A stretch of 64,000 nt of DNA from NCBI GenBank assembly GCA_039585235.1, contig JBDGWG010000002.1, positions 27,346 through 91,345 of the forward strand, read 5' to 3'. This document shows, in pieces, positions 33,578-52,700 of this stretch. The notes under the pieces were generated by a model, which saw nothing but the letters and a program-made list of their open reading frames with translations, had not been told where the DNA came from and did not search any database. The translations under genes were made by a program, and so were the position numbers. Origin of the DNA: Gemmatimonadota bacterium (lineage in GTDB: Bacteria > Gemmatimonadota > Gemmatimonadetes > Palauibacterales > Palauibacteraceae). Position 1 is the first letter of the stretch; every line of letters begins with the position of its first letter.

Positions 33578-34123
33578 ATGGGAAACGCACAGCCACGAGT
33601 TCTCATATCCGAGGAGGACATTCGCCGCCGAGTTGGCGAGCTCGGCGCGACGATCGAACGGGACTACGCCGGGGTGGACGAAATACTCCTCCTCGGCGTC
33701 CTTCGTGGGGCCTTCATCTTTCTCGCCGACCTGGTCCGCCAGCTCACGATCCCCCGACGCATCGACTTCATCGCGCTTTCGAGTTACGAGTACGGTTCCA
33801 ATTTCGCCGGCGGCGTGCGGTTGATCATGGACTCACGGATCAACGTGACGGGCCGGCACGTGCTCATCGTCGAGGACATCCTCGATTCCGGCCGGACTCT
33901 TTCCTATCTCCTCGAGACGTTCCAAGCCCGCCATCCGGCTTCCCTCAAGAGCTGCGTCCTCGTCCGCAAGCCGGGGCAGGAGGTTCCGGTTCCGGTCGAC
34001 TACGTGGGCTTCGACATCCCCGACGAGTGGGTCGTGGGCTACGGTCTCGACTACGGTGACCATTTCCGCGCTCTTCCCTACATTGGCGTGGTGGAGCCCG
34101 AGGCTGGGAACGCGGCCGGCTGA
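33578..34123 (+). CDS. hpt: hypoxanthine phosphoribosyltransferase
   Basis: PRTase motif LIVEDILDSGRTL and an N-terminus typical of Hpt, 181 aa. Confidence 0.92.
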   Translation: MGNAQPRVLISEEDIRRRVGELGATIERDYAGVDEILLLGVLRGAFIFLADLVRQLTIPRRIDFIALSSYEYGSNFAGGVRLIMDSRINVTGRHVLIVEDILDSGRTLSYLLETFQARHPASLKSCVLVRKPGQEVPVPVDYVGFDIPDEWVVGYGLDYGDHFRALPYIGVVEPEAGNAAG

Positions 34124-34463: not shown

Positions 34464-36377
34464 ATGACGAGAGTTCTCTTGGTTGACGATACAGCTGTGA
34501 AGACGCGCGTGGAGACGAACCGGGTCCAGGCGACCCGGTCCCCGCAGTGCACGGTCGAGGTGGTCTCCGATTCCGGCGAGGGCGCCCAGAAGTGCGGGCA
34601 GACTTTCGGCGCGGTCAGCGCGAAGATGGGCAACGGCGTGTGGACGGTGGAGATCATCCCGGCGGAGATCCAGCCGCCCCCCCGGAGCCCGGCCGGCGCC
34701 AGCGGCAACCGGATCCGGATCGGCGAGGAAGTGGTGACCAACTGGGGCGACCGCACGAACGTCGCCATCGCCTTCAACGAGCAGGTCCTGCTCGCCCGGC
34801 ACCGGCTCGATGCGATCGAGGACGATGCGATCCTCCTGGTCGAGAACATGTGGGCCACGCACAAGGACGAGGACATCCGGGCGGAGTGGACCGCGGCGAT
34901 GGAGGAGCTCGGCGCGGCGAACTACCGGATCATCGAAGTCCCGATGGAGGAGGAGTGCCTCACCATCGTGGACAACGCGCGCAAGGGCAAAAATATGTTC
35001 GCGCTCGGCGTCCTGTGCTGGATGTTCGATCGCGACATGGACATCACTCGCGACCAGATCGCGCATGCCTTCCGGAAGAAGGCCCCCGAGATCACCGAGC
35101 GAAACCACGAGCTGCTCGAGCTCGGGTACTCGTGGGCAGACGCTCACCTGGACGTCCGTATCGACGTGCCACCGGGCCTGTCGCCCGAGAACACCCTTGT
35201 GATGAACGGCAACCAGGCGATCGCCTATGGCGCGGTGGCGGCCGGAATGGACCTGGCCGCCATGTACCCGATCACCCCGGCCACGTCGGTCTCGCATCAG
35301 CTCGGTGAAATGTTCTACAAGTTCGGTGGGGTCGTTCACCAGGCGGAGGACGAAATCGCTGCCGCAGGAGTCGCGATAGGCGCTTCGTACTCCGGGAAGG
35401 TGGCGTTCACGATCACCTCGGGCCCCGGCCTCGCCCTGAAGACCGAGTTCCTCGGTTTGTCCGTTATGTCGGAGATCCCCCTCGTGGTGGTGGACGTGCA
35501 GCGGGGCGGCCCGAGCACCGGTCTGCCCACGAAGGTGGAGCAGTCGGATCTCCTGGCGGCCCTTTTTGGCCAGCCGGGCGACGCGCCGCACGTGGTGATG
35601 GCTCCGGCCACGATCGAGGAGTGCTTCCACGCCATGATCACGGCCCGCAGGATCGCCGAGACGTTCCGCACGCTGGTCATCGTGATGACGGACGCCAATC
35701 TGGCCACCGGTGTGCAGCCGTTCGCCCGCCCCGCGCTCGATCCGGCGTGGCAGGGTTCGGCCCCCGACATGTCGCCGGTCGCGGAGGGAAAGGCTCCGTA
35801 CGCTTGGGACGAGGAGACTGGACTTTCGAGGCGCTTCATTCCGGGCACGCCGGGCGGCATGCACACGCTCACCGGTCTGGCGCACGATGAGAACAGCCGG
35901 GTGGCCTACGCCTCTGCCATCAACCAGAAGAGCTCGGCCATGCGGAGCCGTAAGATGGCCGTGCTGCACAGCACGCTCAGGCCTCCCGTGGTGCACGGTC
36001 CGGAATCGGGTGACCTGCTGGTCGTCGGCTGGGGAAGCACCAAGGGCGCGATCGAGGAAGCCGTGGACCGGGCACGCGAGGAAGGCTTCTCGGTCTCGTC
36101 GCTCCACCTGCGCTTCCTGTCGCCGCTCGAGCCCGGTCTGAAGGCGATATTCGGGAGGTTCAAGAAGGTCATGACGGTCGAGATCAACTACAGCGACGAT
36201 CCCGACATGCCGTACATCACGGACGAGAACCGGCGGCGCGGCCAGCTGGCGTGGTTGCTTCGGGCCCAGACGCTGGTGGACCTGGACTGCTGGACACGCG
36301 TGCTGGGTGAGCCCCTGAAGCCGGGGGAGATCCGCGACGTGATCCGGGCCAACGTTGCGAAAGGGGGCGCGGCATGA
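34464..36377 (+). CDS. korA: 2-oxoacid:ferredoxin oxidoreductase alpha subunit (KorA-type, fused gamma/alpha domains)
   Basis: 637 aa with an N-terminal gamma-like domain (SGEGAQKCGQTFGAV) and pyruvate-flavodoxin oxidoreductase core domains. Confidence 0.88.
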   Translation: MTRVLLVDDTAVKTRVETNRVQATRSPQCTVEVVSDSGEGAQKCGQTFGAVSAKMGNGVWTVEIIPAEIQPPPRSPAGASGNRIRIGEEVVTNWGDRTNVAIAFNEQVLLARHRLDAIEDDAILLVENMWATHKDEDIRAEWTAAMEELGAANYRIIEVPMEEECLTIVDNARKGKNMFALGVLCWMFDRDMDITRDQIAHAFRKKAPEITERNHELLELGYSWADAHLDVRIDVPPGLSPENTLVMNGNQAIAYGAVAAGMDLAAMYPITPATSVSHQLGEMFYKFGGVVHQAEDEIAAAGVAIGASYSGKVAFTITSGPGLALKTEFLGLSVMSEIPLVVVDVQRGGPSTGLPTKVEQSDLLAALFGQPGDAPHVVMAPATIEECFHAMITARRIAETFRTLVIVMTDANLATGVQPFARPALDPAWQGSAPDMSPVAEGKAPYAWDEETGLSRRFIPGTPGGMHTLTGLAHDENSRVAYASAINQKSSAMRSRKMAVLHSTLRPPVVHGPESGDLLVVGWGSTKGAIEEAVDRAREEGFSVSSLHLRFLSPLEPGLKAIFGRFKKVMTVEINYSDDPDMPYITDENRRRGQLAWLLRAQTLVDLDCWTRVLGEPLKPGEIRDVIRANVAKGGAA

Positions 36378-37327
36378 GCCTCTCCTGCTGCTCGCTGCTC
36401 ACGCCGGTCGAGGAGGACCGCGAGTTCAGCCTCGAGGATTACGAGGGAGCCCGCCCCCGCTGGTGCTCGGGGTGTGGCGACCACTCCGTGCTCACGGCGG
36501 CGCAGCGGCTCCTGGTGGACGAACAGCTGAAGCCCGAGGAGACGGTGTTCGTCTCGGGGATCGGCTGCTCCAGCCGCTTCCCGCACTACATGAAGACCTA
36601 CGGTTTTCACGGGCTGCACGGCCGGGCGCTCCCGGTCGCCACGGGCGTCAAGCTGAATCGGCCGGATCTCAACGTGTTCGTGGTGATGGGCGACGGCGAC
36701 TGCGTGTCGATTGGCGCCGGACACTGGGTGCACGCCATCAGGTACAACGTGGACATGGTCGCCATGATGCTGGACAACAACATCTACGGCCTGACCAAGA
36801 TGCAGACGTCGCCCACGACGCCGCAGGGCTACAAGAGCAACACTCAGCCGCAGGGAAGCTGGCTCCCGGCGCTCGATCCGCTCGAGGCGACGCTCGGGAT
36901 CACGAACGCTTCCTTCGTGGCGCAGACGGCGGAGTGGATCCCGGCGCACCTGTTCGCGACTCTCCAGGCGGCGTACCGCCATCGGGGATTCGCGTTCGTC
37001 CGCGTGCTTCAGCGTTGCCCGGTGTTCACGGAAGACATCTATTTGGACGCCGTGCGAAACCCGGAGATGGTCGAAATGCTAGATCATCCCGACGGAGTCG
37101 AGGTCCCCGAGTCACTGCGGCAGATATACCCGAACCAGATGCGGCACGACCCGCGTAACCTGGCCGCGGCGCGGGAGATCGCGGCCGACTCATCGCGTCT
37201 CCGGATCGGCGTGTTGTATCGTGACGAGTCCAATCCGCGGTACGAAGAAACCCGACATCTTCCGCTGCACACGGCGGAAGACAAGATCCGAATCCTGAAC
37301 GAAGAGCTGGACAAATATGCCGTCTGA
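36374..37327 (+). CDS. korB: 2-oxoacid:ferredoxin oxidoreductase beta subunit (TPP-binding)
   Basis: CSGCGDHS and the TPP motif GDGDCVSIG. ATGA overlap with korA. Confidence 0.9.
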   Translation: MSLSCCSLLTPVEEDREFSLEDYEGARPRWCSGCGDHSVLTAAQRLLVDEQLKPEETVFVSGIGCSSRFPHYMKTYGFHGLHGRALPVATGVKLNRPDLNVFVVMGDGDCVSIGAGHWVHAIRYNVDMVAMMLDNNIYGLTKMQTSPTTPQGYKSNTQPQGSWLPALDPLEATLGITNASFVAQTAEWIPAHLFATLQAAYRHRGFAFVRVLQRCPVFTEDIYLDAVRNPEMVEMLDHPDGVEVPESLRQIYPNQMRHDPRNLAAAREIAADSSRLRIGVLYRDESNPRYEETRHLPLHTAEDKIRILNEELDKYAV

Positions 37328-38348
37328 CAAGACGACCGACGAGCGCACCGCACGTGCGCTGGACGTCCTCGAAAAGGCACGCGGAGACTTCCACTCGGCC
37401 CTCGTGGCGACGTCGGAGGAGCTCCGCGGCCTGTTGGACGCCGGGAGCGCCACCGCGGAAGCACGGGCCGAGCGCACGGCGGCCGAGCTCGGCGCGTTCG
37501 CCGTAGGGCATATCGATATCGAGAGATTCGCGTCCTTCCAGGAGACCGGTGAGCCGGTGGCGGTCACCGAGGCTCCGAGGATCGAAGCGGCGACCCGGGC
37601 TCTTCAGTCCCTCCTGGAGCACGGCAGCGACCTCTACTTCGTCAGCGTGGAGCCGGGCTCCGACCTGCGCGACGCGGCGACGCGGGCGCTCGGAAGGGCC
37701 GGGCGGGCGTTCGGCGCGGCACGGACGGTGGAGCTGGCGCGCGCCGGCAAGTACGACGAAGGCGCGCACGGCGGGTGGCTGGACAGTTTCCCACCCTCGC
37801 TGTGGAGCCAGCGGGAAAGAGAGCTCGCTCCGCCGCTCGTGATGGAGGTGGAAGGAGCCGACCTGCGACCGGGCGGGCTGGCCGATTTCCTTGATGGCGG
37901 TCAGAAGATCGTGTTGGTGGTTCGCGGGTCCGCCCCTCCAGCCTCGTTGTCCCGGCTCATTACGCCCGGACTACTGGTGGTACAGACCGAGGACCCGGCG
38001 GAGCTGGCCATCGTGGCGGAGGCCGAAGGACCGGCGATCGCCGCGCTCGTCCCGAGCGACGCATGCCGCTTCGTGCACTATCCGGCCCCGGATGGCGGCG
38101 CGGGACGGCTCACGGTGCACCACATGCCTGCGGAGGAGCCGCGACGCGCCCTGGGAAGCATCAGCGTTTTTCAGCAGGTCGAGGCGATGCGGCAGTTGGC
38201 AGCGCTGTCCGCTGGATGGGGACTCGGCGCTTCCGAGACGGCCGTATCGTCCGACGACGGAGCCTCCGGGCCGCCGCCCGCTGCCTCAGCGGCGGACAAG
38301 CTGGCGGCGTGGGTCCTCCGCCAGGCAGACATTTCGGGAACGGGCTGA
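37317..38348 (+). CDS. hypothetical protein (343 aa, Ala/Gly/Leu-rich, no TM, no recognisable motif) embedded between korB and rnfB
   Basis: Long ORF overlapping the korB 3' end by 11 nt, with a 12-nt gap to rnfB. No conserved family was recognised. Confidence 0.5.
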   Translation: MPSDKTTDERTARALDVLEKARGDFHSALVATSEELRGLLDAGSATAEARAERTAAELGAFAVGHIDIERFASFQETGEPVAVTEAPRIEAATRALQSLLEHGSDLYFVSVEPGSDLRDAATRALGRAGRAFGAARTVELARAGKYDEGAHGGWLDSFPPSLWSQRERELAPPLVMEVEGADLRPGGLADFLDGGQKIVLVVRGSAPPASLSRLITPGLLVVQTEDPAELAIVAEAEGPAIAALVPSDACRFVHYPAPDGGAGRLTVHHMPAEEPRRALGSISVFQQVEAMRQLAALSAGWGLGASETAVSSDDGASGPPPAASAADKLAAWVLRQADISGTG

Positions 38349-38359
38349 GGGGGGGACGC

Positions 38360-39211
38360 TTGGACCCTCATGCCATCCTGTCTTCCGTCGCCGTGCTGGG
38401 CGGGGTGGGGCTCACGTTCGGTACCCTGATCGCGATCGCGAACAGGAAGTTGTACGTGTGGGAGGACCCCCGCATCGACGAGATCACCGACATCCTCCCG
38501 GGCGCCAACTGCGGAGCGTGCGGTCTCGCGGGTTGCCGTGCGTTCGCAGAAGCGGCGATCGACGGTCAGATCGCCCCGGCCGGGTGCACGGTGATGGGCG
38601 AGGCCGAGCTGGAGGACGTGGCGGCCATGCTGGGCGTAGATGCCGGCGAGGCCTCGAAGGTCGTGGCCCGCCTGCTGTGCGCAGGTGGCAGCGACGTCGC
38701 GCCGCAGAAGGCCCTGTACGACGGCATCGAGAGCTGCGCGGCCGCCGTTGCGGTGAGTGGCGGCGGGAAGGCGTGTGCGTGGGGGTGCGTCGGACTGGCA
38801 GATTGCGCGGTCGTGTGCACGTTCGACGCGATCCGGATGAACGACGTGGACCTTCCGGTCGTGGTCACGGAAAGGTGCACGGCGTGCAACGACTGCGTGG
38901 AGGCATGCCCGCTCGACCTGTTCGTGCTCATGCCGATGGACCACAAGCTGATCGTGCAGTGCAGGAACCTGCTGGATGGCGACGCGGCGACTGATGTGTG
39001 CGCCGTGGCCTGCAACGCGTGCGGGCGGTGCGCACAGGACGCGCCCGAAGTAGTGACAATGGACGGCGGCCTGGCCGTCGTGGACTATGATAAGATCGAT
39101 TTCGCCGACCCGACGGCGGCGGCGCGCTGCCCCACTGGAGCGATCCGGTGGGTGGAGGGCGCCCAGCACTTCGAGGTCGAGCTGACAGCGGCAGGGAGTC
39201 TAACAGGATGA
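38360..39211 (+). CDS. rnfB: Rnf electron transport complex subunit B (polyferredoxin)
   Basis: N-terminal TM helix, the RnfB signature LPGANCGACGLAGCRAFAEAA, and two further 4Fe-4S CxxCxxCxxxCP motifs. TTG start with a GAGGGGGG RBS. Confidence 0.85.
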   Translation: MDPHAILSSVAVLGGVGLTFGTLIAIANRKLYVWEDPRIDEITDILPGANCGACGLAGCRAFAEAAIDGQIAPAGCTVMGEAELEDVAAMLGVDAGEASKVVARLLCAGGSDVAPQKALYDGIESCAAAVAVSGGGKACAWGCVGLADCAVVCTFDAIRMNDVDLPVVVTERCTACNDCVEACPLDLFVLMPMDHKLIVQCRNLLDGDAATDVCAVACNACGRCAQDAPEVVTMDGGLAVVDYDKIDFADPTAAARCPTGAIRWVEGAQHFEVELTAAGSLTG

Positions 39212-42200
39212 TCAGGCGAAACAGAGGCGACGACCCGGCACCCGAAGCGCGGTACCCGGGCGTTCCGGTGGCGATGGACGGCAGCGAGGCGGTCGTGGAG
39301 ATGGAGACCGCCGCCAGCGAGGGGGCGGGAGCGTACCCGATCACCCCGTCCACTCAGATGGGCGAGGGGTGGGCCGCAGCGAAGGCCGCGGGAAGGACCA
39401 ACGTCAATGGCCGGCGGCTGCTGTTCTTCGAGCCGGAGGGGGAACACGCGGCGGCGGGGGTCACGGCCGGAATGAGCATGACCGGGCTCCGGGCGACCAA
39501 CTTCTCGAGCGGACAGGGCATCGCGTACATGCACGAGTCCCTGTACGCGGCCGTCGGAAAGCGCCTCACGTACGTGCTCAACGTCGCGGCCCGCGCCATG
39601 ACGAAGCACGCCCTGAACGTGCACGCCGGCCACGACGACTACCACGCCGTCGACGACACGGGGTTCTTTCAGGTATTCGCCAAGGACGTCCAGGGGATCG
39701 CCGACCTGACGCTGATCGCCCATCGGATCGCGGAGCTCAGCCTGAATCCGGGGCTCGTGGCGCAGGACGGCTTCCTGACGAGCCATGTGATCGAATCGGT
39801 GCGCTTGCCCGAGCGGGATCTCATCAAGGAGTACCTCGGAGATCCGGCGGACATGATCGAGTCTCCCACCCCGGCGCAGGTGCTCACGTTCGGCGCTACC
39901 CGCCGCCGGATCCCGGAAATGTTCGACCTGGACTACCCCGCCCTCCTCGGGTCGGTGCAGAACCAGGACGCGTACATGCAGGGTGTGGCGGCCCAGCGGC
40001 CGTTCTACTTCGATCACGTGCGGGAGCTCACTGATCAGGCCATGGCGGAGTATGCGGAGCTGACGGGCCGCCGGTACGAGCGGACCCTGGGCTACCTCAT
40101 GGATGACGCCGAGTACGTCCTGGTGGGCCAGGGCTCCGTCGTGTCGAACGCCGAGGCCGTGGCGGACTACCTGCGGGCGGAGCGCGGGCTCAAGGTCGGG
40201 GTGATGGACGTCGTGATGTTCCGCCCGTTCCCCGCCGATCTGATCAGCGCCATGCTGAAGGGCAAGAAGGGCGTCACGGTGCTGGAACGCTGCGACCAGC
40301 CGCTGGCCGTGGACCAGCCGCTGCTGCGGGAAATCCGGGCGGCCATGTCGCAGGGCCAGGAAAACAACCGCGCTTCTCGAGCCGCGAAGAACGGCTCGCG
40401 CCCCTTCCCTCTGGTGGCCGATGTCGCACCCGAGCAGGTGCCCGACTTCTACTCGGCCGGGTTCGGATTCGGGAGCCGGGACCTCCAACCGGCGGACCTC
40501 GTCCTCGCGGTGGAGAACATGCTTCCCGGAGGACGGACGCGGCGCCAATACTATCTCGGGATCGACTTCGTTCGTGAGGGCACGAAGCTCCCGAAGCTGG
40601 AGATCTGGCAGGAAGAACTGCTCGAGCATTACCCGGACCTCGGAGAGCGCGCGCTCGTGCCCGCAGGTGACATCAACCTGCTGCCCGAGGACGCCATCTC
40701 GATGCGCATCCACTCGGTGGGCGGCTGGGGTGCGATCACGATGGGTAAGAACGTGGTCATGACCGCGTTCGAGCTCGCGGGCCTCAACGTCAAGGCGAAT
40801 CCCAAGTACGGGTCCGAGAAGAAGGGCCAGCCGACCACGTTCTACGGCGTGCTCTCCCGCAAGCCGCTGCGCCTGAACGGTGAGCTCCAGTTCGTGAACG
40901 TCGTGCTGTCTCCGGATCCCAACGCGTTCAGCAACTCGAACCCGCTCGCCGGGCTGCAGCCGGGAGGCGTGTTCGTGATCCAGAGCGAACACGAGCCCGA
41001 TGCCCTGTGGGCCTCCCTGCCCGCGCAGGCGCGCCAGGTCATCCAGGAGAACGACATCAAGGTGTTCTCGGTCGACGCGTTCAAGATCGCCACCGAGGAG
41101 GCCACCGATCCGGATCTCCGATACCGGATGCAGGGAACCGCGTTCATGGGCGCCTTCTTCCGCACGTCGCCGTTCATGGAGGCGGAGGGCCTGGACGAGG
41201 AGACCCTGTTCGAGGGGATGCGGAAGCAGCTCGAGAAGAAGTTCGGGCACCTGGGCGAGCGCGTGGTGGAAGCCAACCTCAAGGTGATCCGGCGAGGCTT
41301 CGACGAAGTCCGGCCCATGGTGGTGCAGGGCGAGCTCGTGGGCGCCGGCCAGGTGATGGCGGAGGCGGCGGTGGGCCAGATTCCGACGCTACTCGATCAC
41401 TCCGACCAGGAGTGGGGGATCGGGAACCAGGGCCGGTTCTGGGAGCAGGTGTGCTCGCTGTGCGGACTCGACCAGGACGTGATCGCCGACCCGTTCGCGG
41501 CGATCAGCGCCATTCCGGCCGCCACCAGCACCGTGCGCGACATGTCGGACATCCGTTTCGAGATTCCGGAGTTCATCGCGTCGAAGTGCACGGGGTGCTC
41601 CCAGTGCTGGACGCAGTGCCCGGATGCGGCGATCCCGGGAGTGGTCAACTCGGTGGAGGACGTCCTCCAGGCGGCCATCAGGACCGCCCAGAACGGCAAG
41701 CCCCTGGACCGTATCCAGTCGGTGTCGGCCAACCTGGCCCGCGAGGCGCGCAAAGTCCTGAAAGCCGTCCCGTTCAAGACGTTCGGCGATACCGTCTCGA
41801 CGGCTTACGCCAACCTCGCGGAAAAGCTGCCTTGGGACGCCGAGCGCAAGAAGGAACTGGACGAGGAGTTCGCCGCCGTGTACTCGGTGCTCGCGGACTT
41901 CCCTCTCGCGAAGACGGTTCCGTTCTTCGACAACCACGAAAGCAAGGAAAAGGGCGCGGGCGGCCTCCTGTCGATCACCGTGAATCCCGAGGCCTGCAAG
42001 GGCTGCAACATCTGCGTGGACGTGTGCGCCGACGGCGCGCTCGTGACGGTGCATCAGAACGAGGAGAACCTGGACCTGCTGCGCCGCAACTGGAAGCTGT
42101 GGGAGAACCTTCCCGACACGGCCGACCGGTTCATCAACATCCGGAATCTGGAAGAGGGAATCGGAGTTCTTCCGTCGCTGCTGTTGAAGAAGGAGAACTA

Positions 42201-44337
42201 CCGCACGATGGCGGGAGGTGACGGGGCGTGCATGGGGTGCGGAGAGAAGACGGCCGTGCACCTGATCGTCTCGGCAGTCGAATCGCTGATGCAGCCCCGG
42301 GTCGAGAACTTCGTGGCCCGGATAGAGGAGCTGATCGAGACGCTGGACGGCCAGGCCCGCGAGCTGCTGTCCGCCGATGCGGACCTCGATCTTGCGGCGC
42401 TCGCCGATGGTGAGGCCGCGGAAGTCCCCCTGGACGACGAGAAGCGGGCGCAGCTCAAGCTGTACACGGATGCGATCGCCGCCCTCAAGGACCTGTTGTG
42501 GCGCTACACCAAGGGGCCGAGCGGCCAGGGACGCGCCAACATGGGAATCAGCAACAGCACCGGCTGCTCGTCGGTGTGGGGCAGCACCTTCCCGTACAAC
42601 CCGTATCCGTATCCGTGGGTGAACCACCTGTTCCAGGACTCGCCGTCCGTGGCTATCGGGATCTTCGAAGGCCACATGCGGAAGATGGCGGACGGGTTCA
42701 CCGCCGTGCGCCGGGCCCGGTTGCTCGCCGCCGGCGAGTACGACGCCGAGGTCCACGAGCCCGAGTTCGTCGAGCTCACGTGGCAGGACTTCACGGACGA
42801 GGAGTTCGACCTGTGTCCGCCGATCGTGGCGATGGGCGGCGACGGGGCGATGATGGACATCGGGTTCCAGAACCTGTCCCGGCTCCTCGCCTCAGGTAAG
42901 CCGATCCGGGTGGTCGTGCTGGACACCCAGGTCTACTCGAACACCGGCGGCCAGGCCTGCACGAGCGGGTTCATCGGACAGGTGTCCGACATGGCCGCGT
43001 ACGGCAAGGCCCAGCACGGCAAGGAGGAGACCCGCAAGGAGCTGGCGCTGATCGCCCTCGCGCACCGGGGAGCCTTCGTGCTCCAGTCCTCGCAGGCCTC
43101 GGCGTCGCACATGATCGGCGGCGTGATCCGGGCGCTGAAGTCGCCGCGGCCCGCCGTCATGAACATCTACACGCCGTGTCCGGTGGAGCATGGCCTTGCC
43201 GACGAGTGGGCGCCCAACGCCTCCCGCTTCGCCCTCGAGGGGCGCGCGTTCCCGTTCCTGATCTTCGATCCGGACGCCGGGTCGACGATCGCCGACTGCC
43301 TGGACCTGAGCGGCAACCCCGATCTCGACCAGACGTGGCCAACGTACGAGCTGGAGTACGCAGACGAGGACGGACATTCCCAGAAGATGGAGCTTCCGGT
43401 CACGACCGCGGACTGGGCGGCCACGGAGGGCCGGTTCAAGAAGCACTTCAAGCGGATCAAGCCGGCGGACTGGGACGACGAGCAGGTGCTGTTCCATGAA
43501 TTCCTGGACCTGTCGGAGGACGCGCGGGTCGGCAAGAAGCCCTTCATCTGGGTGATCGACGCGGACAAGAAGCTCGGCCGCCTGGCGTGCTCGATGGAGA
43601 TGGTGCTGCTCGGCGAGGACCGGCTCCTGTACTGGTCGCAGATGAAGGAGCTGGCGGGTCTCGAGGTCCCCGCATCGGTGCGGGCCGACATCGCAGACGA
43701 CATGGAGGCCGAGTTCGAGGCGAAGGCCGCGGCGATCCGCACGGATTACGAGGCGCAGCTCGCGGAGCTCCGCATGAGCTACCCGGCGCTCGTCGCCCGA
43801 CGGATGGCCGAAGGTCTCCTGGCCTCCGGAGACGGGAACCTGACGGTGGCCGAGATCCTGGCCCGGGCGAACGCCGATCCGGACCTGCAGCCGATCACCG
43901 CCGAGGCCGTGGCCGGGCTGGCCGGCGGACTGGGCGTGGACGTGGGCGGCGGAAACGGTGGCGCGACGATCACGGTCGCCCCGGCGGAAGCCGTCGCGGG
44001 GTCCGTGGCGATCGCGGAGGCCACCGAGGTCGCGGAAGTGCCGGTCGCCCCGGCGCCGGCCGCCGAAGACGACGAGGACGATGCCCTCGTGATGGACCCG
44101 TACATCGAGACGGCCCGCTGCACCTCGTGCGACGAGTGCATCAACATCAACAAGAAACTGTTCGCATACGACGAGAACAAGCAGGCGTACATCAAGGACA
44201 GGAACGCCGGCACGTTCGCCGAAATCGTTCAGGCGGCCGAGAAGTGCACCGCCGAGATCATCCACCCGGGCACGCCGCTCAACAAGAAGGAGAAGGACAT
44301 CGAGAAGTGGATCGAGCGGGCGCAGCCGTTCAACTGA
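39208..44337 (+). CDS. pyruvate:ferredoxin (flavodoxin) oxidoreductase, unusually long (1709 aa) with internal insertion and about 385-aa C-terminal extension ending in a ferredoxin-like CxxCxxC...C domain
   Basis: PFOR domains I-VI are recognisable (GAYPITPSTQM, the 2x[4Fe-4S] domain CTGCSQCWTQCP / CKGCNICVDVCA, and the TPP domain GGDGAMMDIG...VLDTQVYSNTGGQ). An insertion of about 100 aa lies between CMGCGEKT and STGCSSVWGS. The C-terminal extension holds a coiled-coil, an Ala/Gly/Val/Glu-rich linker, and RCTSCDECIN...EKCTAEII. ATGA overlap with the rnfB stop. Confidence 0.85.
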   Translation: MIRRNRGDDPAPEARYPGVPVAMDGSEAVVEMETAASEGAGAYPITPSTQMGEGWAAAKAAGRTNVNGRRLLFFEPEGEHAAAGVTAGMSMTGLRATNFSSGQGIAYMHESLYAAVGKRLTYVLNVAARAMTKHALNVHAGHDDYHAVDDTGFFQVFAKDVQGIADLTLIAHRIAELSLNPGLVAQDGFLTSHVIESVRLPERDLIKEYLGDPADMIESPTPAQVLTFGATRRRIPEMFDLDYPALLGSVQNQDAYMQGVAAQRPFYFDHVRELTDQAMAEYAELTGRRYERTLGYLMDDAEYVLVGQGSVVSNAEAVADYLRAERGLKVGVMDVVMFRPFPADLISAMLKGKKGVTVLERCDQPLAVDQPLLREIRAAMSQGQENNRASRAAKNGSRPFPLVADVAPEQVPDFYSAGFGFGSRDLQPADLVLAVENMLPGGRTRRQYYLGIDFVREGTKLPKLEIWQEELLEHYPDLGERALVPAGDINLLPEDAISMRIHSVGGWGAITMGKNVVMTAFELAGLNVKANPKYGSEKKGQPTTFYGVLSRKPLRLNGELQFVNVVLSPDPNAFSNSNPLAGLQPGGVFVIQSEHEPDALWASLPAQARQVIQENDIKVFSVDAFKIATEEATDPDLRYRMQGTAFMGAFFRTSPFMEAEGLDEETLFEGMRKQLEKKFGHLGERVVEANLKVIRRGFDEVRPMVVQGELVGAGQVMAEAAVGQIPTLLDHSDQEWGIGNQGRFWEQVCSLCGLDQDVIADPFAAISAIPAATSTVRDMSDIRFEIPEFIASKCTGCSQCWTQCPDAAIPGVVNSVEDVLQAAIRTAQNGKPLDRIQSVSANLAREARKVLKAVPFKTFGDTVSTAYANLAEKLPWDAERKKELDEEFAAVYSVLADFPLAKTVPFFDNHESKEKGAGGLLSITVNPEACKGCNICVDVCADGALVTVHQNEENLDLLRRNWKLWENLPDTADRFINIRNLEEGIGVLPSLLLKKENYRTMAGGDGACMGCGEKTAVHLIVSAVESLMQPRVENFVARIEELIETLDGQARELLSADADLDLAALADGEAAEVPLDDEKRAQLKLYTDAIAALKDLLWRYTKGPSGQGRANMGISNSTGCSSVWGSTFPYNPYPYPWVNHLFQDSPSVAIGIFEGHMRKMADGFTAVRRARLLAAGEYDAEVHEPEFVELTWQDFTDEEFDLCPPIVAMGGDGAMMDIGFQNLSRLLASGKPIRVVVLDTQVYSNTGGQACTSGFIGQVSDMAAYGKAQHGKEETRKELALIALAHRGAFVLQSSQASASHMIGGVIRALKSPRPAVMNIYTPCPVEHGLADEWAPNASRFALEGRAFPFLIFDPDAGSTIADCLDLSGNPDLDQTWPTYELEYADEDGHSQKMELPVTTADWAATEGRFKKHFKRIKPADWDDEQVLFHEFLDLSEDARVGKKPFIWVIDADKKLGRLACSMEMVLLGEDRLLYWSQMKELAGLEVPASVRADIADDMEAEFEAKAAAIRTDYEAQLAELRMSYPALVARRMAEGLLASGDGNLTVAEILARANADPDLQPITAEAVAGLAGGLGVDVGGGNGGATITVAPAEAVAGSVAIAEATEVAEVPVAPAPAAEDDEDDALVMDPYIETARCTSCDECININKKLFAYDENKQAYIKDRNAGTFAEIVQAAEKCTAEIIHPGTPLNKKEKDIEKWIERAQPFN

Positions 44338-44370: not shown

Positions 44371-45696
44371 ATGCTCGGATCCAGCACATTCAGACACGGC
44401 GTGCACCCGCCGGAGACCAAGCAGCTGACCGAGAGCGTGCCGGTGCGGCGCATGCCGTTCCCCGAGGAGATCGTCCTTCCTCTACGCCAGCACGCCGGCC
44501 GGCCGGCCCGTCTGCTCGTGAAGGTCGGCGATCACGTCGAGCGGGGCGACAAGGTGGCCGAGGCGGACGGTTTCGTCTCGGTCCCGATCCATGCTTCCGC
44601 CGCCGGCACGGTGAAGGGCATGCGGCTGTGTCCCCATCCGGACGGGTCGATGGCCGAGTCAGTGGTCATCGCAGTGGACCGGTACTCCCCACAGGTACCG
44701 AGGCCGCGCATCGTCCCCAGGTGGGAAGGCCTGTCGCCGCAGCAGGTGGTGGAGGAGGTCCAGAAGGCCGGAGTCGTGGGTCTCGGGGGCGCCGCCTTCC
44801 CGACGCACGTGAAGCTGCTCCCTCCGGAGGACGTCCCCGTTCACACTCTGATCATCAACGGAGCGGAGTGCGAACCGTACCTGACCACCGATCACCGCAC
44901 GATGGTCGAGTATCCGGAGAGAGTGCAGTTCGGGAGCCGGATCATGATGAAGGCGCTGGGCGTCGAGAAGGCGGTCATCGGAGTCGAGAAGAACAAGCCG
45001 GACGCCATCGCCCGGCTGCGCGCGACCTTGCCCGACGACCTCGACGTTTCCGTGGTGCCGCTCACGGTAAAGTATCCGCAGGGCGCCGAGAAGATGCTGA
45101 TCAAGGCGGTGACGGGGCGTGAGGTCCCTTCCGGCAAGCTTCCGATGAACGTGGGCGTCGTGGTGCAGAACGTCGGGTCCATCGCCTGTATCGGAGAGAT
45201 CTTCGAGACCGGTTACCCCCTGATCGAGCGCGTCGTGACCGTCACCGGGCCCGGGGTCCGGAAGCCCTCGAACCTGATCGTCCCCGTGGGCACGCGGCTC
45301 CGGGACGTCCTGGAGTTCTGCGACGGGCTGACCGAGGACGCCGCCCAGATCGTGTTTGGCGGCCCCATGATGGGGGCCGCGCAGCCCGACCTCGACACCC
45401 CCCTCATCAAGGGCACGACAGGCGTGGTCGTGCTCACGAGCGAGGAGGCCCGGTCCGTGGAGCGCTATCCGTGCATCCACTGCGGTCGCTGCCTCGAGGC
45501 GTGTCCCGTGTTCCTCAACCCATCGCTCCTCGGCACGCAGGCGCAGGCGGGCCGGTACGAGGAGATGGAAGCCTCGCACCTCATGGACTGCATGCTGTGC
45601 GGGTGCTGCTCGTACGTATGCCCGTCGAACATCCCGCTGTCGCAGATGTTCGCGCTCGGAAAGAACATGCTCCGCAAGCGGAAGGCGGCGGCATGA
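44371..45696 (+). CDS. rnfC: Rnf complex subunit C
   Basis: GAAFPTHVKL motif and two ferredoxin motifs CIHCGRCLEACP / CMLCGCCSYVCP, 441 aa. Confidence 0.9.
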   Translation: MLGSSTFRHGVHPPETKQLTESVPVRRMPFPEEIVLPLRQHAGRPARLLVKVGDHVERGDKVAEADGFVSVPIHASAAGTVKGMRLCPHPDGSMAESVVIAVDRYSPQVPRPRIVPRWEGLSPQQVVEEVQKAGVVGLGGAAFPTHVKLLPPEDVPVHTLIINGAECEPYLTTDHRTMVEYPERVQFGSRIMMKALGVEKAVIGVEKNKPDAIARLRATLPDDLDVSVVPLTVKYPQGAEKMLIKAVTGREVPSGKLPMNVGVVVQNVGSIACIGEIFETGYPLIERVVTVTGPGVRKPSNLIVPVGTRLRDVLEFCDGLTEDAAQIVFGGPMMGAAQPDLDTPLIKGTTGVVVLTSEEARSVERYPCIHCGRCLEACPVFLNPSLLGTQAQAGRYEEMEASHLMDCMLCGCCSYVCPSNIPLSQMFALGKNMLRKRKAAA

Positions 45697-46760
45697 GCGA
45701 TGCGAGCCCCGGACGCGGACCGGGCGCTGGTACCTATCTCGATTCCCTGACCGAAATCCGGCTGAGGATCGCGGCCTCGCCGCACCTGCGGTCCTCCCAC
45801 TCCACGCCCCGCATCATGTGGAACGTGGTGGGATCGCTCGTGCCGATCCTGGCGGTCGCGACGTACTTCTTCGGCCCGAGCGCGCTCCTGGTCGTCGGCG
45901 CCGCCACTATCGGCGCCGTGGGCACGGAGCGCCTGTTCGGCCACAAGGGCAGCACGGCGGACGGCTCGGCCGTGATCACGGGCCTTCTGCTCGGCCTGAT
46001 CCTGCCACCTGGTTTTCCCCTGTGGATGGCTTTCCTCGGCGGCGTGTTCGGGGTCGGGTTCGGCAAGCTCATCTTCGGTGGGCTGGGACAGAACGTGTTC
46101 AACCCGGCCCTCCTGGGGCGGGCGTTCCTGCAAGCGGCCTTCCCGATCGCGATCACCACCTGGCCGGTCCAGCCGGTGAGCTGGTGGTCGCTGCGGGGCG
46201 ACAACTTCGCGTTGCCCCTGATGTCTCCGGGCGCACCCGACGTAGCCACCGGCGCCACGCCGCTCGGCCTCATGAAGTTCGAGGGACTGTCCACGAACAC
46301 GCTCGATCTCATGATGGGTTCGACCGCCGGCTCGATCGGCGAAACGGCCGGGCTGCTGATCCTGGTGTGCGGGGGCTATCTGGCTCTGAGGAAGTATCTC
46401 GACTGGCGGATCCCCCTGAGCATCTTTCTCACGGTGTTCGCGTTCTCGGGCCTCCTGTACCTGATCGGCCCCGACCGCTTCCCCAACCCCGTGTTCATGC
46501 TGTTCTCCGGTGGCCTCATGCTCGGCGCCCTGTACATGGCCACCGACCTGGTCACGTCACCCGTGACGCCAGCAGGCTCGTGGATCTTCGGCATCGGCAT
46601 CGGGCTGCTCGTCGTCCTCATCCGGGTATGGGGTGGGCTGCCGGAAGGGGTGATGTACGCGATCCTGTTCATGAACGCGCTCGTGCCGTTCATCGACCGG
46701 GCCACGCAACCGCGGGTGTTCGGGCAGCCGCGCCGGAAGCCGAAGGGAGCGGAGGCATGA
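45693..46760 (+). CDS. rnfD: Rnf complex subunit D
   Basis: Polytopic NqrB/RnfD-like sequence (IGAVGTERLF, the flavinylation region TGATPLG). ATGA overlap with rnfC. Confidence 0.85.
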   Translation: MSDASPGRGPGAGTYLDSLTEIRLRIAASPHLRSSHSTPRIMWNVVGSLVPILAVATYFFGPSALLVVGAATIGAVGTERLFGHKGSTADGSAVITGLLLGLILPPGFPLWMAFLGGVFGVGFGKLIFGGLGQNVFNPALLGRAFLQAAFPIAITTWPVQPVSWWSLRGDNFALPLMSPGAPDVATGATPLGLMKFEGLSTNTLDLMMGSTAGSIGETAGLLILVCGGYLALRKYLDWRIPLSIFLTVFAFSGLLYLIGPDRFPNPVFMLFSGGLMLGALYMATDLVTSPVTPAGSWIFGIGIGLLVVLIRVWGGLPEGVMYAILFMNALVPFIDRATQPRVFGQPRRKPKGAEA

Positions 46761-47527
46761 AGGAGCTCCCCACGGCCCAGGTCGACGACGGCGGCTCGGA
46801 TTCCGGTATGCCAGGACCTCCGCAGGTAGCCTCCGGGAAGCTGATGGCCACACTGGCCATCGCGGGTGCTGTCGCGGGCCTGGCGATCGTGCTCGTGTTC
46901 CAGTGGGCCGATCCGCAGATCCAGGCGCACCGGGCAGCCGCGCTCCGCGCCGCCGTGCTCGAGGTCCTGAGCGAGCCGGCGAGCTATCAGTCCCTGTACG
47001 TGACTGACGCAGGTCTCAGTGATGCGGCGCCGGCGGGGGTGGACACGGTCAGGGCGGAGAAGGTGTTTCTCGGCTTCGACGAAGCGGGGGATCCGGTCGG
47101 CTACGCCGTCACGGGGGCCGAGCCTGGTTTTCAGGACTTCATTCACCTGATCTTCGGGTTCGATCCGGGCGCGGGGCGCCTGCTCGGGATGAAGGTCCTC
47201 GAGAGCAAGGAGACGCCCGGCCTCGGCGACAAGATCTACAAGGACATGGACTTCGTGACCGAATTCCAGGGGGTGGAAGCTCCGATCGTGGGGGTTAAGC
47301 CGGGAAGGGCGACGGGCGCCGCCAACGAGGTGGATATGATCACCGGAGCCACGATCTCCTCGCGCACCGTGATCGGGATCATCAACCACCGGGTCGAGGA
47401 GCTGGGCTCCGACATGGAAGCGCACGCGGCTACCGGCCCCCGGGCGATGGAAAGACCTGATCCGGCCGCCACGGACGAAGCCGGCGGGGACGAAGCCGGC
47501 GCGCACGGGGGTGAGGCAGGGTCATGA
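46757..47527 (+). CDS. rnfG: Rnf complex subunit G (FMN-binding)
   Basis: N-terminal TM and the FMN_bind motif MITGATISSRTV. ATGA overlap with rnfD. Confidence 0.85.
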   Translation: MKELPTAQVDDGGSDSGMPGPPQVASGKLMATLAIAGAVAGLAIVLVFQWADPQIQAHRAAALRAAVLEVLSEPASYQSLYVTDAGLSDAAPAGVDTVRAEKVFLGFDEAGDPVGYAVTGAEPGFQDFIHLIFGFDPGAGRLLGMKVLESKETPGLGDKIYKDMDFVTEFQGVEAPIVGVKPGRATGAANEVDMITGATISSRTVIGIINHRVEELGSDMEAHAATGPRAMERPDPAATDEAGGDEAGAHGGEAGS

Positions 47528-48186
47528 GAGAAACCACGCCGCGCGAAGACCTGATCCGGGGCATCTGGAAGGAAAACCCGGTGCTGGTGCAGCTCCTCGG
47601 ACTGTGCCCTGCCCTGGCGGTCACCAACACGGTTCCCAACAGCATCGCCATGGGTCTCGCCACCTTCTTCGTGCTCATGGGGTCGAGCCTTCTCGTTTCC
47701 TTGTTCAAGAACTGGATCCCCTCCGAGGTCCGGATCTCCGCGTACATCCTGATCATAGCGACGTTCGTCACCATCGCCGACTTCGTGCTCGCGGCGGTCG
47801 TGCCCCTGATCCACAAGGAGCTTGGCGCTTTCATCGCGCTGATCGTCGTCAACTGCATGATACTCGGCCGTCAGGAGGCGTTCGCGTCCAAGAGGCCCGT
47901 CGGAAGGTCTCTTCTCGACGCGGCGGGAACCGGTGCCGGCTTCATGATCGCGATGCTGATGATGGGCACGTTTCGTGAAGTACTCGGGAACGGATCCATC
48001 ATGGGATACAGCGTCCTCGGCGAGAACTTCGAGCCGTGGATCGTGATGATCCTGCCACCGGGCGGCTTCCTCACACTGGGCTTCATCCTCCTCGGCTTCG
48101 GCTGGTGGAAGCAGCGCCAGGCGGAATCGATCCGGGTGCGGCAGTGGCCGCACGGGGTGGCGAGCGGAGAGGAGGAGGCGGCGTGA
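47524..48186 (+). CDS. rnfE: Rnf complex subunit E
   Basis: NPVLVQLLGLCPALAVTN... NqrD/RnfE signature. ATGA overlap with rnfG. Confidence 0.9.
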   Translation: MRETTPREDLIRGIWKENPVLVQLLGLCPALAVTNTVPNSIAMGLATFFVLMGSSLLVSLFKNWIPSEVRISAYILIIATFVTIADFVLAAVVPLIHKELGAFIALIVVNCMILGRQEAFASKRPVGRSLLDAAGTGAGFMIAMLMMGTFREVLGNGSIMGYSVLGENFEPWIVMILPPGGFLTLGFILLGFGWWKQRQAESIRVRQWPHGVASGEEEAA

Positions 48187-48761
48187 TGGGCGAGCTGTTC
48201 TGGATCCTCCTCTCGGCGATGCTGGTCAACAACTTCACCCTGCATCTGTTCCTCGGCCTGTGCCCGTTCATGGGCGTGTCGGCGAAGGTAGAGACGGCGC
48301 TGCGCATGGGGCTCGCGAACATCTTCGTCCTTGTGATGACCTCGGTGTGCGTGTGGCTCCTGAACACGTTCATCCTGGTCTACGCCCCGTATTTGAGGCT
48401 GATTTCGTTCATAGTCGTGATCGCGTCCTTCGTGCAGATCACGGAGATGGCGATCAAGAAGTTCAGCCCCACCCTGTTTCGGCAGCTCGGGATCTTCCTG
48501 CCGCTGATCACCACGAACTGCGCGATCCTCGGATACGCGATCTTCAATACGAACCGGGGCTATGGCTTCCTGCAGGGCCTGTTCTTCGCCATTGGGGCCG
48601 GCCTCGGACTCACTCTGGCCCTCGTGCTGATGGCGTCGATCCGCGAGACGTCGGAGACCGCCAGCATCCCGGCCGTGGCCCGCAACATGGGCCTGGTGCT
48701 GATAATCGCGGGTAGTCTTTCGCTGGCGTTCATGGGCTTCGCGGGGCTGTTCACATCGTGA
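48186..48761 (+). CDS. rnfA: Rnf complex subunit A
   Basis: LVNNFTLHLFLGLCPFMGVS... NqrE/RnfA signature. TGATG overlap with rnfE. Confidence 0.9.
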   Translation: MGELFWILLSAMLVNNFTLHLFLGLCPFMGVSAKVETALRMGLANIFVLVMTSVCVWLLNTFILVYAPYLRLISFIVVIASFVQITEMAIKKFSPTLFRQLGIFLPLITTNCAILGYAIFNTNRGYGFLQGLFFAIGAGLGLTLALVLMASIRETSETASIPAVARNMGLVLIIAGSLSLAFMGFAGLFTS

Positions 48762-49501: not shown

Positions 49502-49708
49502 TCGGTAACGCCGCAGCAGATAGACGCTTCGGCGCGGACTCCGACCTCCCGCCTTGCCTGCGCATCGGTCCACGGCTACCGTGTGGCAGTCCCCCCGCGG
49601 AGGCTGCTTCAAACTCACCTCAAGCAGGAGGCCGCGATGAGGCATTTTCTACTATCGCATCCGTTTCCCGCGCTTTCTCTCGCCCACCGGCAGTCCACTC
49701 TTCATTCC

Positions 49709-52700
49709 ATGCTTCGCCGCGCCACGCTCCCAGTTCTGACCGTGGCGTTTCTGCTGCTCACGAGCGGCGATGTGCTGGCGCAGGGCGTGACGACGGGTGG
49801 CGTAGACGGAGTGGTGACGAGCGCGGCGGCCCTGCCGCTGGTTGGTGTCACCGTAACGGCCGTGCACGAGCCCAGCGGAACCACGTACGAGACCACAACC
49901 CGTTCGGGCGGCGTGTTCACGATCGGGGGCATGCGCGTCGGAGGCCCCTACACGGTGACGGCTGCCATTCTAGGCCACCAGCAGGAGATCCAGCAGGGAA
50001 TCAACGTCGTCCTGGGCCAGAACGCTCGGTTGAGCTTCACGCTGGCAGAGACGGCGATCGAGCTGGAGGCGCTGACGGTTCGGGCCGACCAGGACTTGGT
50101 CCTGAACAGCGACCGGACGGGTGCGGCGACGACCATCCCGCACACGGAAGTGCTGGCCCTGCCTTCGGTCCAGCGGAGCGTGCGCGACCTGACGCGGCTC
50201 GATCCGCGCAACGACGGGAACTTCAGCTTCGGTGGGCGGAACTGGCTGTACAACAACATCACGCTGGATGGCTCCTACTTCAACAACTCGTTCGGTCTGG
50301 ACGACCCGGCGCCCGGTGGCCAGACGGCTACCGAGCCGGTTCCGTACGACGCCGTGGAGCAGGTGAGCGTCCAGGTGGCCCCGTTCGACGTACGTCAGAG
50401 CGGGTTTACGGGCGCCAGTATCAATACGGTCACCCGGAGCGGAACCAACAAGTGGAAGGTCTCGGGCTTCGCCTTCTTCCGTAACGACAACCTGGTGGGG
50501 AACAAGGTGAGCGGCGAAGACGTGATCGCGAATCCCGACCTGAGCTTCGGCCAGTATGGCTTCAGCGTGGGCGGGCCTATCATCCAGGACAAACTGTTCT
50601 TCTTCTTAAGCGGCGAGTTGACGCAGCGGGATGATCCGGGATCGAACTTCGTTCCGTCCAGCGGCGGCACGCCGGCGTTCGGAGAGTCGCGGGTCGAGCA
50701 GGCGACGCTGGACGCGATCACGGAACGTATGGCCACGGTTTACAGTTACGACACGGGCCCTTACTCCGGCTTCGTCCACGAGACCAACAGCAACAAGGTG
50801 TTGCTGAAGGTGGACTGGAACGTGAGCTCGAATCACAACATCATGTTCCGCTACAACCGGCTCGACGCGGAGCGCGACCTGCCGCCGCACCCGTTCGTGC
50901 TCAGCATCTTCGACTCGGGTCGCGGGCCCAACAACACCAGCCTCCCATCCCAGAACTCCGGGTATCGGATCACCAACGAGCTCAACTCGTACGCGTTCGA
51001 GTGGAACGCTCGGGCCGGCCGGGGGCAGTGGGCCAACCGGTTCTACGCGAGCTATAACCGGTTCCGGGACTTCCGCGATGCGAACAGCGTGCCGTTCCCG
51101 ACGCTCGAGATCGCCGATGGCGGCGTCACGTACACAACGGTCGGACACGAGCCGTTCTCGATCGAGAACAACCTCGACACGGACGTGTGGCAGTTCACGA
51201 ACGACTTCACGTACTTCACGGGCCGGCACAGCCTAACGCTCGGCGCCAACTTCGAGCAGTTCCGGTTCTTCAACTCGTTCAACCTGTTCCGGTACGGGAC
51301 CTTCGGATTCCCCGGCGGCGCGGGCAACTTCAGCAGCCTGGATGACTTCTTCACCCGAACTGACCCGACCGATCCTAATTTCTATGACGCGGAGTCCTTC
51401 ATTGTAACGGGTGACTACAAGGGCGAGAAGTTCAACCTGGGACAGCTGGGCGTGTACTTGCAGGACCAGTTCGTGATCAGCCCGACGTTCACCCTCAACG
51501 CCGGGCTCCGCGTGGACTTCCCCATGTACTTCACCGATCCGGTGGACAACCAGTTCTCGCGAGATCTCATTGCAATCAACGGCGACGGCGAGTCGGTCAC
51601 GGTCGACCAGAGTCAACTGGCCGGTAGCACGCCCCTGTGGTCGCCCCGGATCGGCTTCAACTGGGACGTCACCGGAGACCGTTCGACGCAGTTGCGCGGC
51701 GGGACCGGGATCTTCACGGGCCGTCTGCCGTTCGTGTGGATCGGAAACGTGTTCTCCAACCCGAGCACGAATCCCAATATTTGGCCTGACGCGCCCAAAG
51801 TGGTCACGAGCGGCCCACGGCCGGGCTCCGGCGAGGATAGCTTCATCCTGCAGCAGTCGTTCGACGGCGTCGCCGCGATGGATCCCGACTTCAAGTGGCC
51901 GCAGATGTGGACGAGCAACATCGCCATCGATCAGCGGCTGCCGTGGGACATGGTGGGAACGCTGGAGTTCATCTACGGCAAGGACATCAACAACATCTAC
52001 ATGCAGAACATGGACCTCCCCGTTGCGACGGAGTTTCTCGCGGATGGGAGGCCGAACTACCAGGGCCTGCGCAACAATCCTGATCCCAACTTCCTGGGCA
52101 GGTCGATGTACGTTCTGAGCAACACCGACGAGGGCCGCAACTACAACATTACGGTGCAGCTCCGGAAACAGTGGGAGAGCGGCCTCGGACTCGGGCTGTC
52201 CTACGCCTACCTGGACGCCACCAACACGCTCAAATCGACGGAGATCGCGAGCGTTCTGTGGGGTGGTCAGCCGACGAACGGGAACCCGAACCTGCCGGTC
52301 GCCTCCCCCTCCGAGTTCGGCCAGCGGCACCGGATCGTGGCCACGGGAACGTACAACAAGAGGTGGAGCGATCTACTCCGGACGAGCTTTGGCCTGTTCT
52401 GGGAGGTCGCCGAAGGCAATACGTTCCGTAACGGCGGCAACCGCTACTCGTTCATCTACTCCGGTGACGTGAACGGAGACGGGGCGACCAACGACCTGAT
52501 CTTCATTCCGGAGACTCAGAGCGACGTCAACCTCGAGGATCCGACGCAGTGGAGCGCGCTCAACGCGTTCATCGAGCAGGACAGCTACCTGAGCAGCCAC
52601 CGGGGAGAGATCGCCGAGCGGTTCGGCCTGCTGAACCCGTGGTACACGGACCTGTCCCTGCGGATTCTGCAGGACTTCATCTTCGGTAGCGGCGACACGG

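Follow-up and report, generated by a model that had tools for sequence, protein, structure and literature searches.

Electron exchange between Rnf complexes and 2-oxoacid oxidoreductases is generally assumed to go through freely diffusing ferredoxin. In solved pyruvate:ferredoxin oxidoreductases (PFORs; 1B0P, 6CIN), domain VI packs on the pyrimidine-type (PYR) domain I and bears the ferredoxin-like domain V on its surface. The PFOR of Desulfovibrio africanus has a non-catalytic C-terminal domain VII, and the E2 components of 2-oxoacid dehydrogenases contain Ala/Pro-rich linkers with peripheral-subunit-binding domains. The locus described here lies in a window of 64,000 nucleotides from a Gemmatimonadota bacterium (GenBank assembly GCA_039585235.1, contig JBDGWG010000002.1, positions 27,346 to 91,345, forward strand; coordinates below count from the first nucleotide of the window). 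Two 2-oxoacid:ferredoxin oxidoreductases (OFORs) sit within its rnf operon, one of them a PFOR of 1729 aa whose ferredoxin domain is apparently tethered. Between korB and rnfB lies the gene under study, referred to as gene X, the product of which (X) quite probably shares common ancestry with PFOR domain VI, as judged from profile comparisons. We lean towards reading X as a non-catalytic, cofactor-free paralogue of domain VI that serves as a structural or docking subunit of the Kor–PFOR–Rnf module; a structural or accessory role in the wider sense is rather likely.

Standard family searches gave no lead. No Pfam family matched X (TPP_enzyme_C was absent from 32 members of the X family even at E ≤ 10), a sequence-profile search of the PDB returned nothing, and NCBIfam was empty except for a spurious match to a streptamidine RiPP family (16 bits against a cut-off of 40). 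A BLASTP comparison within the operon aligned X residues 132–202 with residues 1184–1257 of the giant PFOR (32% identity over 74 aa); the latter stretch, within which the 'CPPIVAMGGDGA' strand lies, is the start of the core of domain VI that binds thiamine diphosphate (ThDP). On alignments derived from the loci (80 related loci were fetched for comparison), hhalign matched X 124–278 to PFOR 1176–1398 with a probability of 84.9, an E value of 6.4e-6 and a score of 49.5, and a separate second run gave a probability of 82.4 and an E value of 9.9e-6. The matched part of X holds the motifs GRAFGAAR, W..ER..APPLV, V-x-G-x-D (at the place of GDG), QKIVLVV, V.QT and F.H.P, and the matched part of the PFOR maps to domain VI of the solved enzymes (6cin 960–1109, 1b0p 956–1115).

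The specificity of this match was assessed against other segments, nulls and a scale control. Ten other segments of the operon, including KorB, PFOR domains I, II and III, RnfB and RnfC, scored 11–29 against X, with probabilities of 0.2 for RnfB and RnfC and 11.7 for PFOR domain III. The reversed profile scored 22.7 and 40 block shuffles scored 24.2 ± 2.2 (maximum 32.6), which places the X–PFOR score about 11 standard deviations (SD) above the block-shuffle nulls. For scale, PFOR domain VI and KorB, a true remote pair compared with equally shallow profiles, scored 41. When the alignment was split, X 125–170 matched positions 148–193 of the PFOR segment (probability 93, E 3e-7), X 251–278 matched the 'FP.L.YDP...L.L.GNP' region (21.9 against a null of 13.6 ± 1.8), and X 77–101 gave a weak but colinear match to the helical insertion of PFOR domain VI (score 22.1); the three segments are colinear and each scored separately. 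Thirty-three aligned positions are conserved to at least 85% in both families, and 17 of them carry the identical residue (F132, R136, E167, P172, P173, G180, L188, L192, V202, G204, L211, V221, Q223, P239, A249, P256 and P271), compared with 0–5 in shifted registers. Common ancestry with PFOR domain VI was detectable by profile probability, colinearity and conserved core residues alike. The best match of X, the helix-loop preceding GDG in the giant PFOR, is absent from the canonical 6cin and 1b0p enzymes, which suggests that X came from the clade of the neighbouring PFOR.

The original prediction had called the protein uncharacterisable, with no motif that could be assigned, and had proposed remote-homology and Foldseek searches. 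These searches supersede that description: the similarity to PFOR domain VI is remote but reproducible, and the predicted core is suggestive of the ThDP fold. The 1729-aa PFOR between rnfB and rnfC, the apparent parent of X, had been left out of that first analysis.

The full-length AlphaFold2 (AF2) model of X reached a mean confidence (pLDDT) of 81. Helices of the N-terminal region span residues ~9–107 according to the family alignment A1 and the AF2 model. The core (residues 104–300) was also folded alone from a 75-sequence alignment; it contains the motifs GRAFGAAR, W..ER..APPLVVEV.G.DL, LDG.QKIVLVV.G.APPA.L.RLITPG, V.QT, GPAIAAL, F.H.P and LP..EP.R.LG..S.FQQ.EELRQL, and its invariant polar residues in A1 are R136, W163, E167, Q223 and H254. 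A variable linker follows; in the orthologues, 28–62 residues separate the preceding helix from the LAAW motif of the short C-terminal helix, which had low pLDDT when X was modelled alone. Longer members of the family (P0191, P0074, P0132, P0147, P0231 and P0167) in some cases carry long low-complexity extensions at the N-terminus, acidic or rich in Ala, Pro and Gly, or have a much longer linker before the LAAW helix; P0191 reads F-x-F-D-P in place of F-x-H-x-P, which is nearer to the PFOR 'YDP' motif.

In a Foldseek search of the PDB with the isolated core, ThDP enzymes made up 16 of the 18 best matches (split-gene transketolase, PDH E1alpha and DXS), and BCKDH E1alpha (1umb) ranked 26th. The closest folds were accordingly those of transketolase-like ThDP enzymes (6YAJ; E1alpha 3DV0, 1W88 and 1UMB; DXS 8A5K and 2O1S), which differ from X in that they possess the cofactor motif that it lacks. 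None of these matches was significant (E 0.018–0.5, TM scores 0.24–0.31), and they mixed pyrophosphate (PP)-type and PYR-type domains, so that they indicate the general ThDP-binding fold (three alpha/beta/alpha layers around a parallel sheet of six strands) and nothing finer. The enrichment in ThDP enzymes is supportive but short of proof.

Domain VI and the OFOR beta subunits (PF02775, TPP_enzyme_C; 6CIN, 1B0P and 9BT4 chain C) resemble X through a colinear profile match over residues 124–278 and, weakly, over 2–306; PFOR domain VI and X have conserved F, R, E, PP, G, V.Q and P in common, and the predicted order of beta-alpha-beta elements is alike. The differences lie in the cofactor sites. 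X lacks the ThDP/Mg motif GDG-X(24-27)-N; the aligned site reads V-x-G-x-D, the variable position being E, D, S, R or A, and the cofactor loop is shortened by ~30 residues, with the Asn-bearing part gone. The proximal [4Fe-4S] cluster has four Cys ligands, and X contains none of them: the segment with the third of them (STGCSS) is deleted and the other ligand positions are without Cys, whereas C2, C111 and C315 are invariant in the PFOR alignment A2. Because both the ThDP/Mg motif and the cluster cysteines are missing, X, as far as its sequence tells, cannot bind ThDP in the canonical way or carry an Fe-S cluster. It further differs from PF02775 in having no Pfam match above the gathering score, and from PFOR domain VI in being a stand-alone protein of 343 aa whose tail is predicted to be disordered and to end in a helix, and in showing no match to the adjacent KorB. 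X would hence not be classed as an OFOR beta subunit or a domain VI, yet most likely descends from one; in fold and ancestry it would belong to a known type, the ThDP-binding domain of OFORs. To our knowledge, a stand-alone, cofactor-less copy of a ThDP domain conserved in a kor-rnf-por operon has not been described before.

Several observations weigh against descent from domain VI. The hhalign probabilities of 82–85% rest on shallow profiles (Neff 2–3.4), and the bulk of the score falls within one 46-column segment. The 17 identities among 33 positions are not independent of hhalign, because they were counted on the alignment that hhalign had optimised. KorB, itself a homologue of domain VI, was not matched by X in hhalign. 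Foldseek returned nothing significant for the core (best E 0.018, probability 0.75), PFOR was absent from the top 50 matches of both the full-length and the core models, and the full-length model gave helical-bundle noise alone (best E 0.23). The likeness to PFOR might be due to chance or convergence, X being an unrelated, lineage-specific Rossmann-like protein with a regulatory or enzymatic role of its own, possibly one with a small ligand (a nucleotide or CoA, for instance). The failure of the Pfam, NCBIfam and PDB sequence searches and of Foldseek to give a significant match would be in keeping with such a protein, and the five invariant polar residues listed above could build a ligand site. 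We nevertheless consider this improbable: the distance of the score from the block-shuffle nulls, the separate scores of three colinear segments, the many conserved residues that coincide between the families, the predominance of ThDP enzymes in the Foldseek results and the restriction of the best-matching PFOR segment to the neighbouring clade all stand against a chance resemblance.

X belongs to a large family. A database search clustered at 90% yielded 314 homologues at E ≤ 1e-3, all of them named 'hypothetical protein' and none with a Pfam domain; those assigned by name came from Gemmatimonadota or Longimicrobiales. An exhaustive profile search gave 582 representatives after clustering at 50% identity, and E was ≤ 1e-30 for 324; nearly all of the 582 were of full length (320–370 aa). 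When one genome per species was scanned, relatives were found in 123 genomes, nearly all of them metagenome-assembled genomes (MAGs) of Gemmatimonadota. A few carriers were labelled Planctomycetota, Rokubacteria or Akkermansiaceae and contained the same operon: the order korAB-X-rnfB-PFOR-rnfC was present at seven loci (L011, L057, L065, L068, L072, L075 and L079) in MAGs labelled Akkermansiaceae, Phycisphaera/Planctomycetota or Rokubacteria, with identities in the range of distant Gemmatimonadota, and reflects either contamination by mis-binning or horizontal transfer of the entire operon.

Comparison with 13 close orthologues gave dN/dS ratios of 0.13–0.23, and X is therefore a real gene under purifying selection. 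Across those genome pairs, korA, korB and rnfB had ratios of 0.06–0.12, so that X is 2–3 times more relaxed; it is also the least conserved gene of the block (41–86% identity, against 57–97% for its neighbours). This faster evolution, together with the loss of the catalytic motifs, could suggest a decaying and functionless remnant of a broken PFOR gene. Such a view is effectively refuted by conservation: the open reading frame (ORF) is of full length in the 123 species genomes and the 582 clusters, the dN/dS values are those of a constrained protein, and the length, 32 invariant columns of A1 and the C-terminal motif are all preserved.

The ORF at 37317–38348 on the forward strand, its length of 343 aa and its 11-nt overlap with korB, as given in the original prediction, were borne out by the sequence. 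So were the absence of a transmembrane (TM) segment, which is not expected from a maximal Kyte–Doolittle mean of 1.24 over 19 residues, and the composition, with a single Cys and an abundance of Ala, Leu, Gly and Glu (17.8, 10.2, 9.9 and 8.2%, respectively; pI 4.8, acidic). This one residue, C250, lacks conservation, and 13 of the 80 orthologues are altogether free of Cys. GC contents at codon positions 1, 2 and 3 were 0.75, 0.55 and 0.82, as is usual for coding sequence of this genome. korB (36374..37327) and X share the 11 nt ATGCCGTCTGA, and the junction TATGCCGTCTGA is nearly invariant across the 80 related loci. The conserved N-terminal M-P-S-(D/E) of X can at least partly be put down to the dual-coding constraint of the overlap with the korB stop, because much of it is imposed by the invariant junction. 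Between the stop codon of X (38346–38348) and the TTG of rnfB (38360) lies a gap of 11 nt (38349–38359) with a G-rich run resembling a Shine–Dalgarno sequence.

On the forward strand of the window the genes follow in the order korA, korB, X, rnfB, the 1729-aa PFOR-like gene, rnfC, rnfD, rnfG, rnfE and rnfA (Table 1). When the neighbouring genes were compared with the 80 loci by tblastn, the order korA-korB-X-rnfB-PFOR-rnfC appeared at every one of sufficient length; L082, which encodes P0191, has it too. An apparent loss of PFOR in L035 and L042 was rejected as an artefact of 100-N scaffold gaps. ATGA overlaps join korA to korB (36374–36377) and rnfB to the PFOR gene (39208–39211), and from these junctions the block from korA to PFOR is read as translationally coupled throughout. 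The connection of X to Kor and Rnf that had been proposed originally is in this way strongly supported by context, namely by invariant synteny, the conserved korB/X overlap and purifying selection; the roles suggested with it, those of an assembly factor, a docking subunit or an adaptor, are still plausible candidates.

Translational coupling also bears on a possible role of X as a transient factor in assembly or maturation. In that case X would be missing from the mature complex; as a mimic of domain VI, it might occupy the PYR (domain I) side of KorA or PFOR until ThDP, the Fe-S cluster or the genuine beta subunit (or domain VI) has been installed. An origin from domain VI without cofactor sites, evolution faster than that of the catalytic subunits and the coupling to korB itself would all agree with such a factor. 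On the other hand, coupling hints at synthesis in stoichiometric amounts, as would be uncommon for a chaperone that acts catalytically, the conserved tail of tether and helix is suggestive of a stable docking element, and X is unlike known Fe-S or ThDP maturation factors in Pfam and NCBIfam; we regard an assembly factor as rather unlikely.

The structural or docking role fits best because X is cofactor-less, is under purifying selection, starts in the korB stop region and ends in a tether with a conserved hydrophobic helix. According to the proposed mechanism, the core of X would be a copy of domain VI of the giant PFOR, encoded two genes downstream, and we infer that it arose by duplication of that domain. 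It would have kept the helix-loop-beta core of domain VI and several core residues, have lost the GDG...N loop and the four Cys, and have gained or retained a flexible Ala/Pro-rich tail with the conserved LAAW helix. The overlapping stop and start codons would give X and KorB in a fixed ratio. Relic surfaces of domain VI could be reused for contacts with partners, and these surfaces, together with the tethered C-terminal helix, might hold partners to each other, for example KorAB, which is of the two-subunit type and without a ferredoxin domain (Pfam, NCBIfam), with a ferredoxin-type module belonging to RnfB or to the PFOR tail. That X is a stable subunit, who its partners are and that its tail serves in docking are put forward here as inferred elements of this proposal, and the specific ferredoxin-docking picture is tentative.

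Domain VII of the D. africanus PFOR and the E2 tethers resemble the tail of X in concept alone, and X differs from them in being a separate polypeptide. The analogy to domain VII leads to a further reading, in which X would act as a protective or regulatory cap that shields the exposed cluster of KorB or PFOR from O2, or gates the exit of electrons, in hosts that are often aerotolerant. A non-catalytic protein with a flexible tail that is tied to O2-sensitive enzymes in Gemmatimonadota might do so. Such a cap is nonetheless distinctly unlikely: X has no conserved Cys for a redox switch, no likeness to domain VII in sequence or fold was seen, although no test was aimed at it, and a cover over the KorB cluster would also shut out ferredoxin. 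Accessory proteins of Rnf and OFOR systems (RnfH, the ApbE flavin transferase, OFOR gamma and delta subunits) are comparable to X in that it, too, lies inside a kor/rnf operon; X matched none of them in Pfam or NCBIfam, nor any Rnf subunit family (RnfA–H), and it is not a delta-type ferredoxin because it has no conserved Cys.

The giant PFOR-like protein is ~500 aa longer than canonical PFORs and scored 394 bits against TIGR02176 (cut-off 911). Its start is probably the ATG at 39208 and not the GTG at 39148, because the former shares an ATGA with the end of rnfB. In domain V, the two Fer4 motifs (808–829 and 943–965) lie ~110 aa apart, domain VI contains a helical insertion, and a C-terminal linker (~1586–1652) is variable and unaligned in most loci. 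Beyond the linker, the Fer4_13 domain looks like a tethered ferredoxin in sequence.

One locus joins X to this ferredoxin directly. In L081 (JGI 3300041084, contig Ga0452213_138004), the protein P0151 encoded at 639–2012 consists of X(1–~300) fused in frame to the C-terminal tail and ferredoxin of PFOR; the gene order is korB, the X::PFOR-tail fusion, dCMP deaminase and an ABC transporter, and rnfB, the PFOR core and rnfC are missing from the contig. Among the longer family members checked for fusions, which mostly have low-complexity N- or C-terminal extensions, P0151 is the sole true fusion. If genuine, it would hint, in the manner of a Rosetta-stone fusion, at joint action of X with KorAB and the ferredoxin module. 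The evidence on partners also tells against a docking role in places. L081 is a single 3.7-kb metagenome contig and a possible chimera, so that it represents either a real deletion/fusion variant or an assembly artefact. Mirror-tree partial correlations with X were 0.43 for PFOR domain III, 0.24 for domain VI and 0.22 for the PFOR C-terminus, and ≤ 0 for KorB and RnfB, a weak signal that names no partner. Homology of the X tail (linker and LAAW helix) to the PFOR tail (YPxLVARRL helix, linker and ferredoxin) was rejected (hhalign score 12.5, probability 0.2).

In the most far-reaching form of the docking proposal, the genes would specify a self-contained supercomplex that translocates ions, acts as a 2-oxoacid:NAD+ oxidoreductase and dispenses with soluble ferredoxin. 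The PFOR ferredoxin would be carried on a flexible arm, and X, by its relic domain-VI surface and its tethered LAAW helix, would dock KorAB to that ferredoxin or to the ferredoxin domains of RnfB. This is speculative and, judged on the present evidence, doubtful; if true, X would be the first pseudo-enzyme subunit of the OFOR family and part of the first hard-wired OFOR–Rnf machine. If X acts as assembly glue, it would represent a new type of pseudo-enzyme subunit and a handle for isolating a direct OFOR–Rnf supercomplex in Gemmatimonadota. This phylum is widespread and has received little study, and the literature on it yielded nothing relevant on the X protein or on Rnf/PFOR operons. A large family of 'hypothetical proteins' (>580 clusters at 50% identity) gains an evolutionary origin and a testable role.

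Table 1. Features of the kor-rnf operon and of gene X (positions in the window)
Feature	Position	Strand	Remarks
korA-like, alpha subunit of 2-oxoacid:acceptor oxidoreductase	34464..36377	+	TIGR03710
korB-like, beta subunit	36374..37327	+	TPP_enzyme_C
Gene X, conserved protein of 343 aa, family unannotated	37317..38348	+	ATG start
Overlap of korB stop and X start, conserved translational-coupling junction	37317..37327	+	11 nt, ATG CCG TCT GA
X, N-terminal helical region (residues 1–107)	37317..37637	+	mixed pLDDT, 53–94
X, alpha/beta core (residues 104–300), predicted degenerate ThDP-binding-fold domain	37626..38216	+	AF2 pLDDT 95, pTM 0.89
X, segment aligned by hhalign to PFOR 1176–1398 (residues 124–278)	37686..38150	+	
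X, variable Ala/Pro/Gly/Ser-rich linker (residues ~301–325)	38217..38291	+	predicted disordered
X, conserved C-terminal short helix, A-D-x-L-A-A-W-(I/L/V)-L-x-Q-A (residues 326–339)	38292..38333	+	candidate docking motif
rnfB	38360..39211	+	TTG start; N-terminal TM helix, FeS and Fer4 domains
Giant PFOR-like gene	39208..44337	+	ORF opens at 39148; ATG 39208 probable start
PFOR, domain VI segment (residues 1176–1398)	42673..43341	+	putative parent of X core
PFOR, C-terminal single-cluster ferredoxin domain, Fer4_13 (residues 1654–1706)	44107..44265	+	behind variable linker
rnfC, rnfD, rnfG, rnfE, rnfA	44371..48761	+	

Upstream of the operon lies a gene for a phosphoribosyltransferase (33578–34123, forward strand), which is syntenic in the closer relatives too. 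Downstream, at 49583–52957 on the same strand, follows a gene for an outer-membrane beta-barrel protein of 1124 aa (Pfam OMP_b-brl_4) with a carboxypeptidase-regulatory-like domain.

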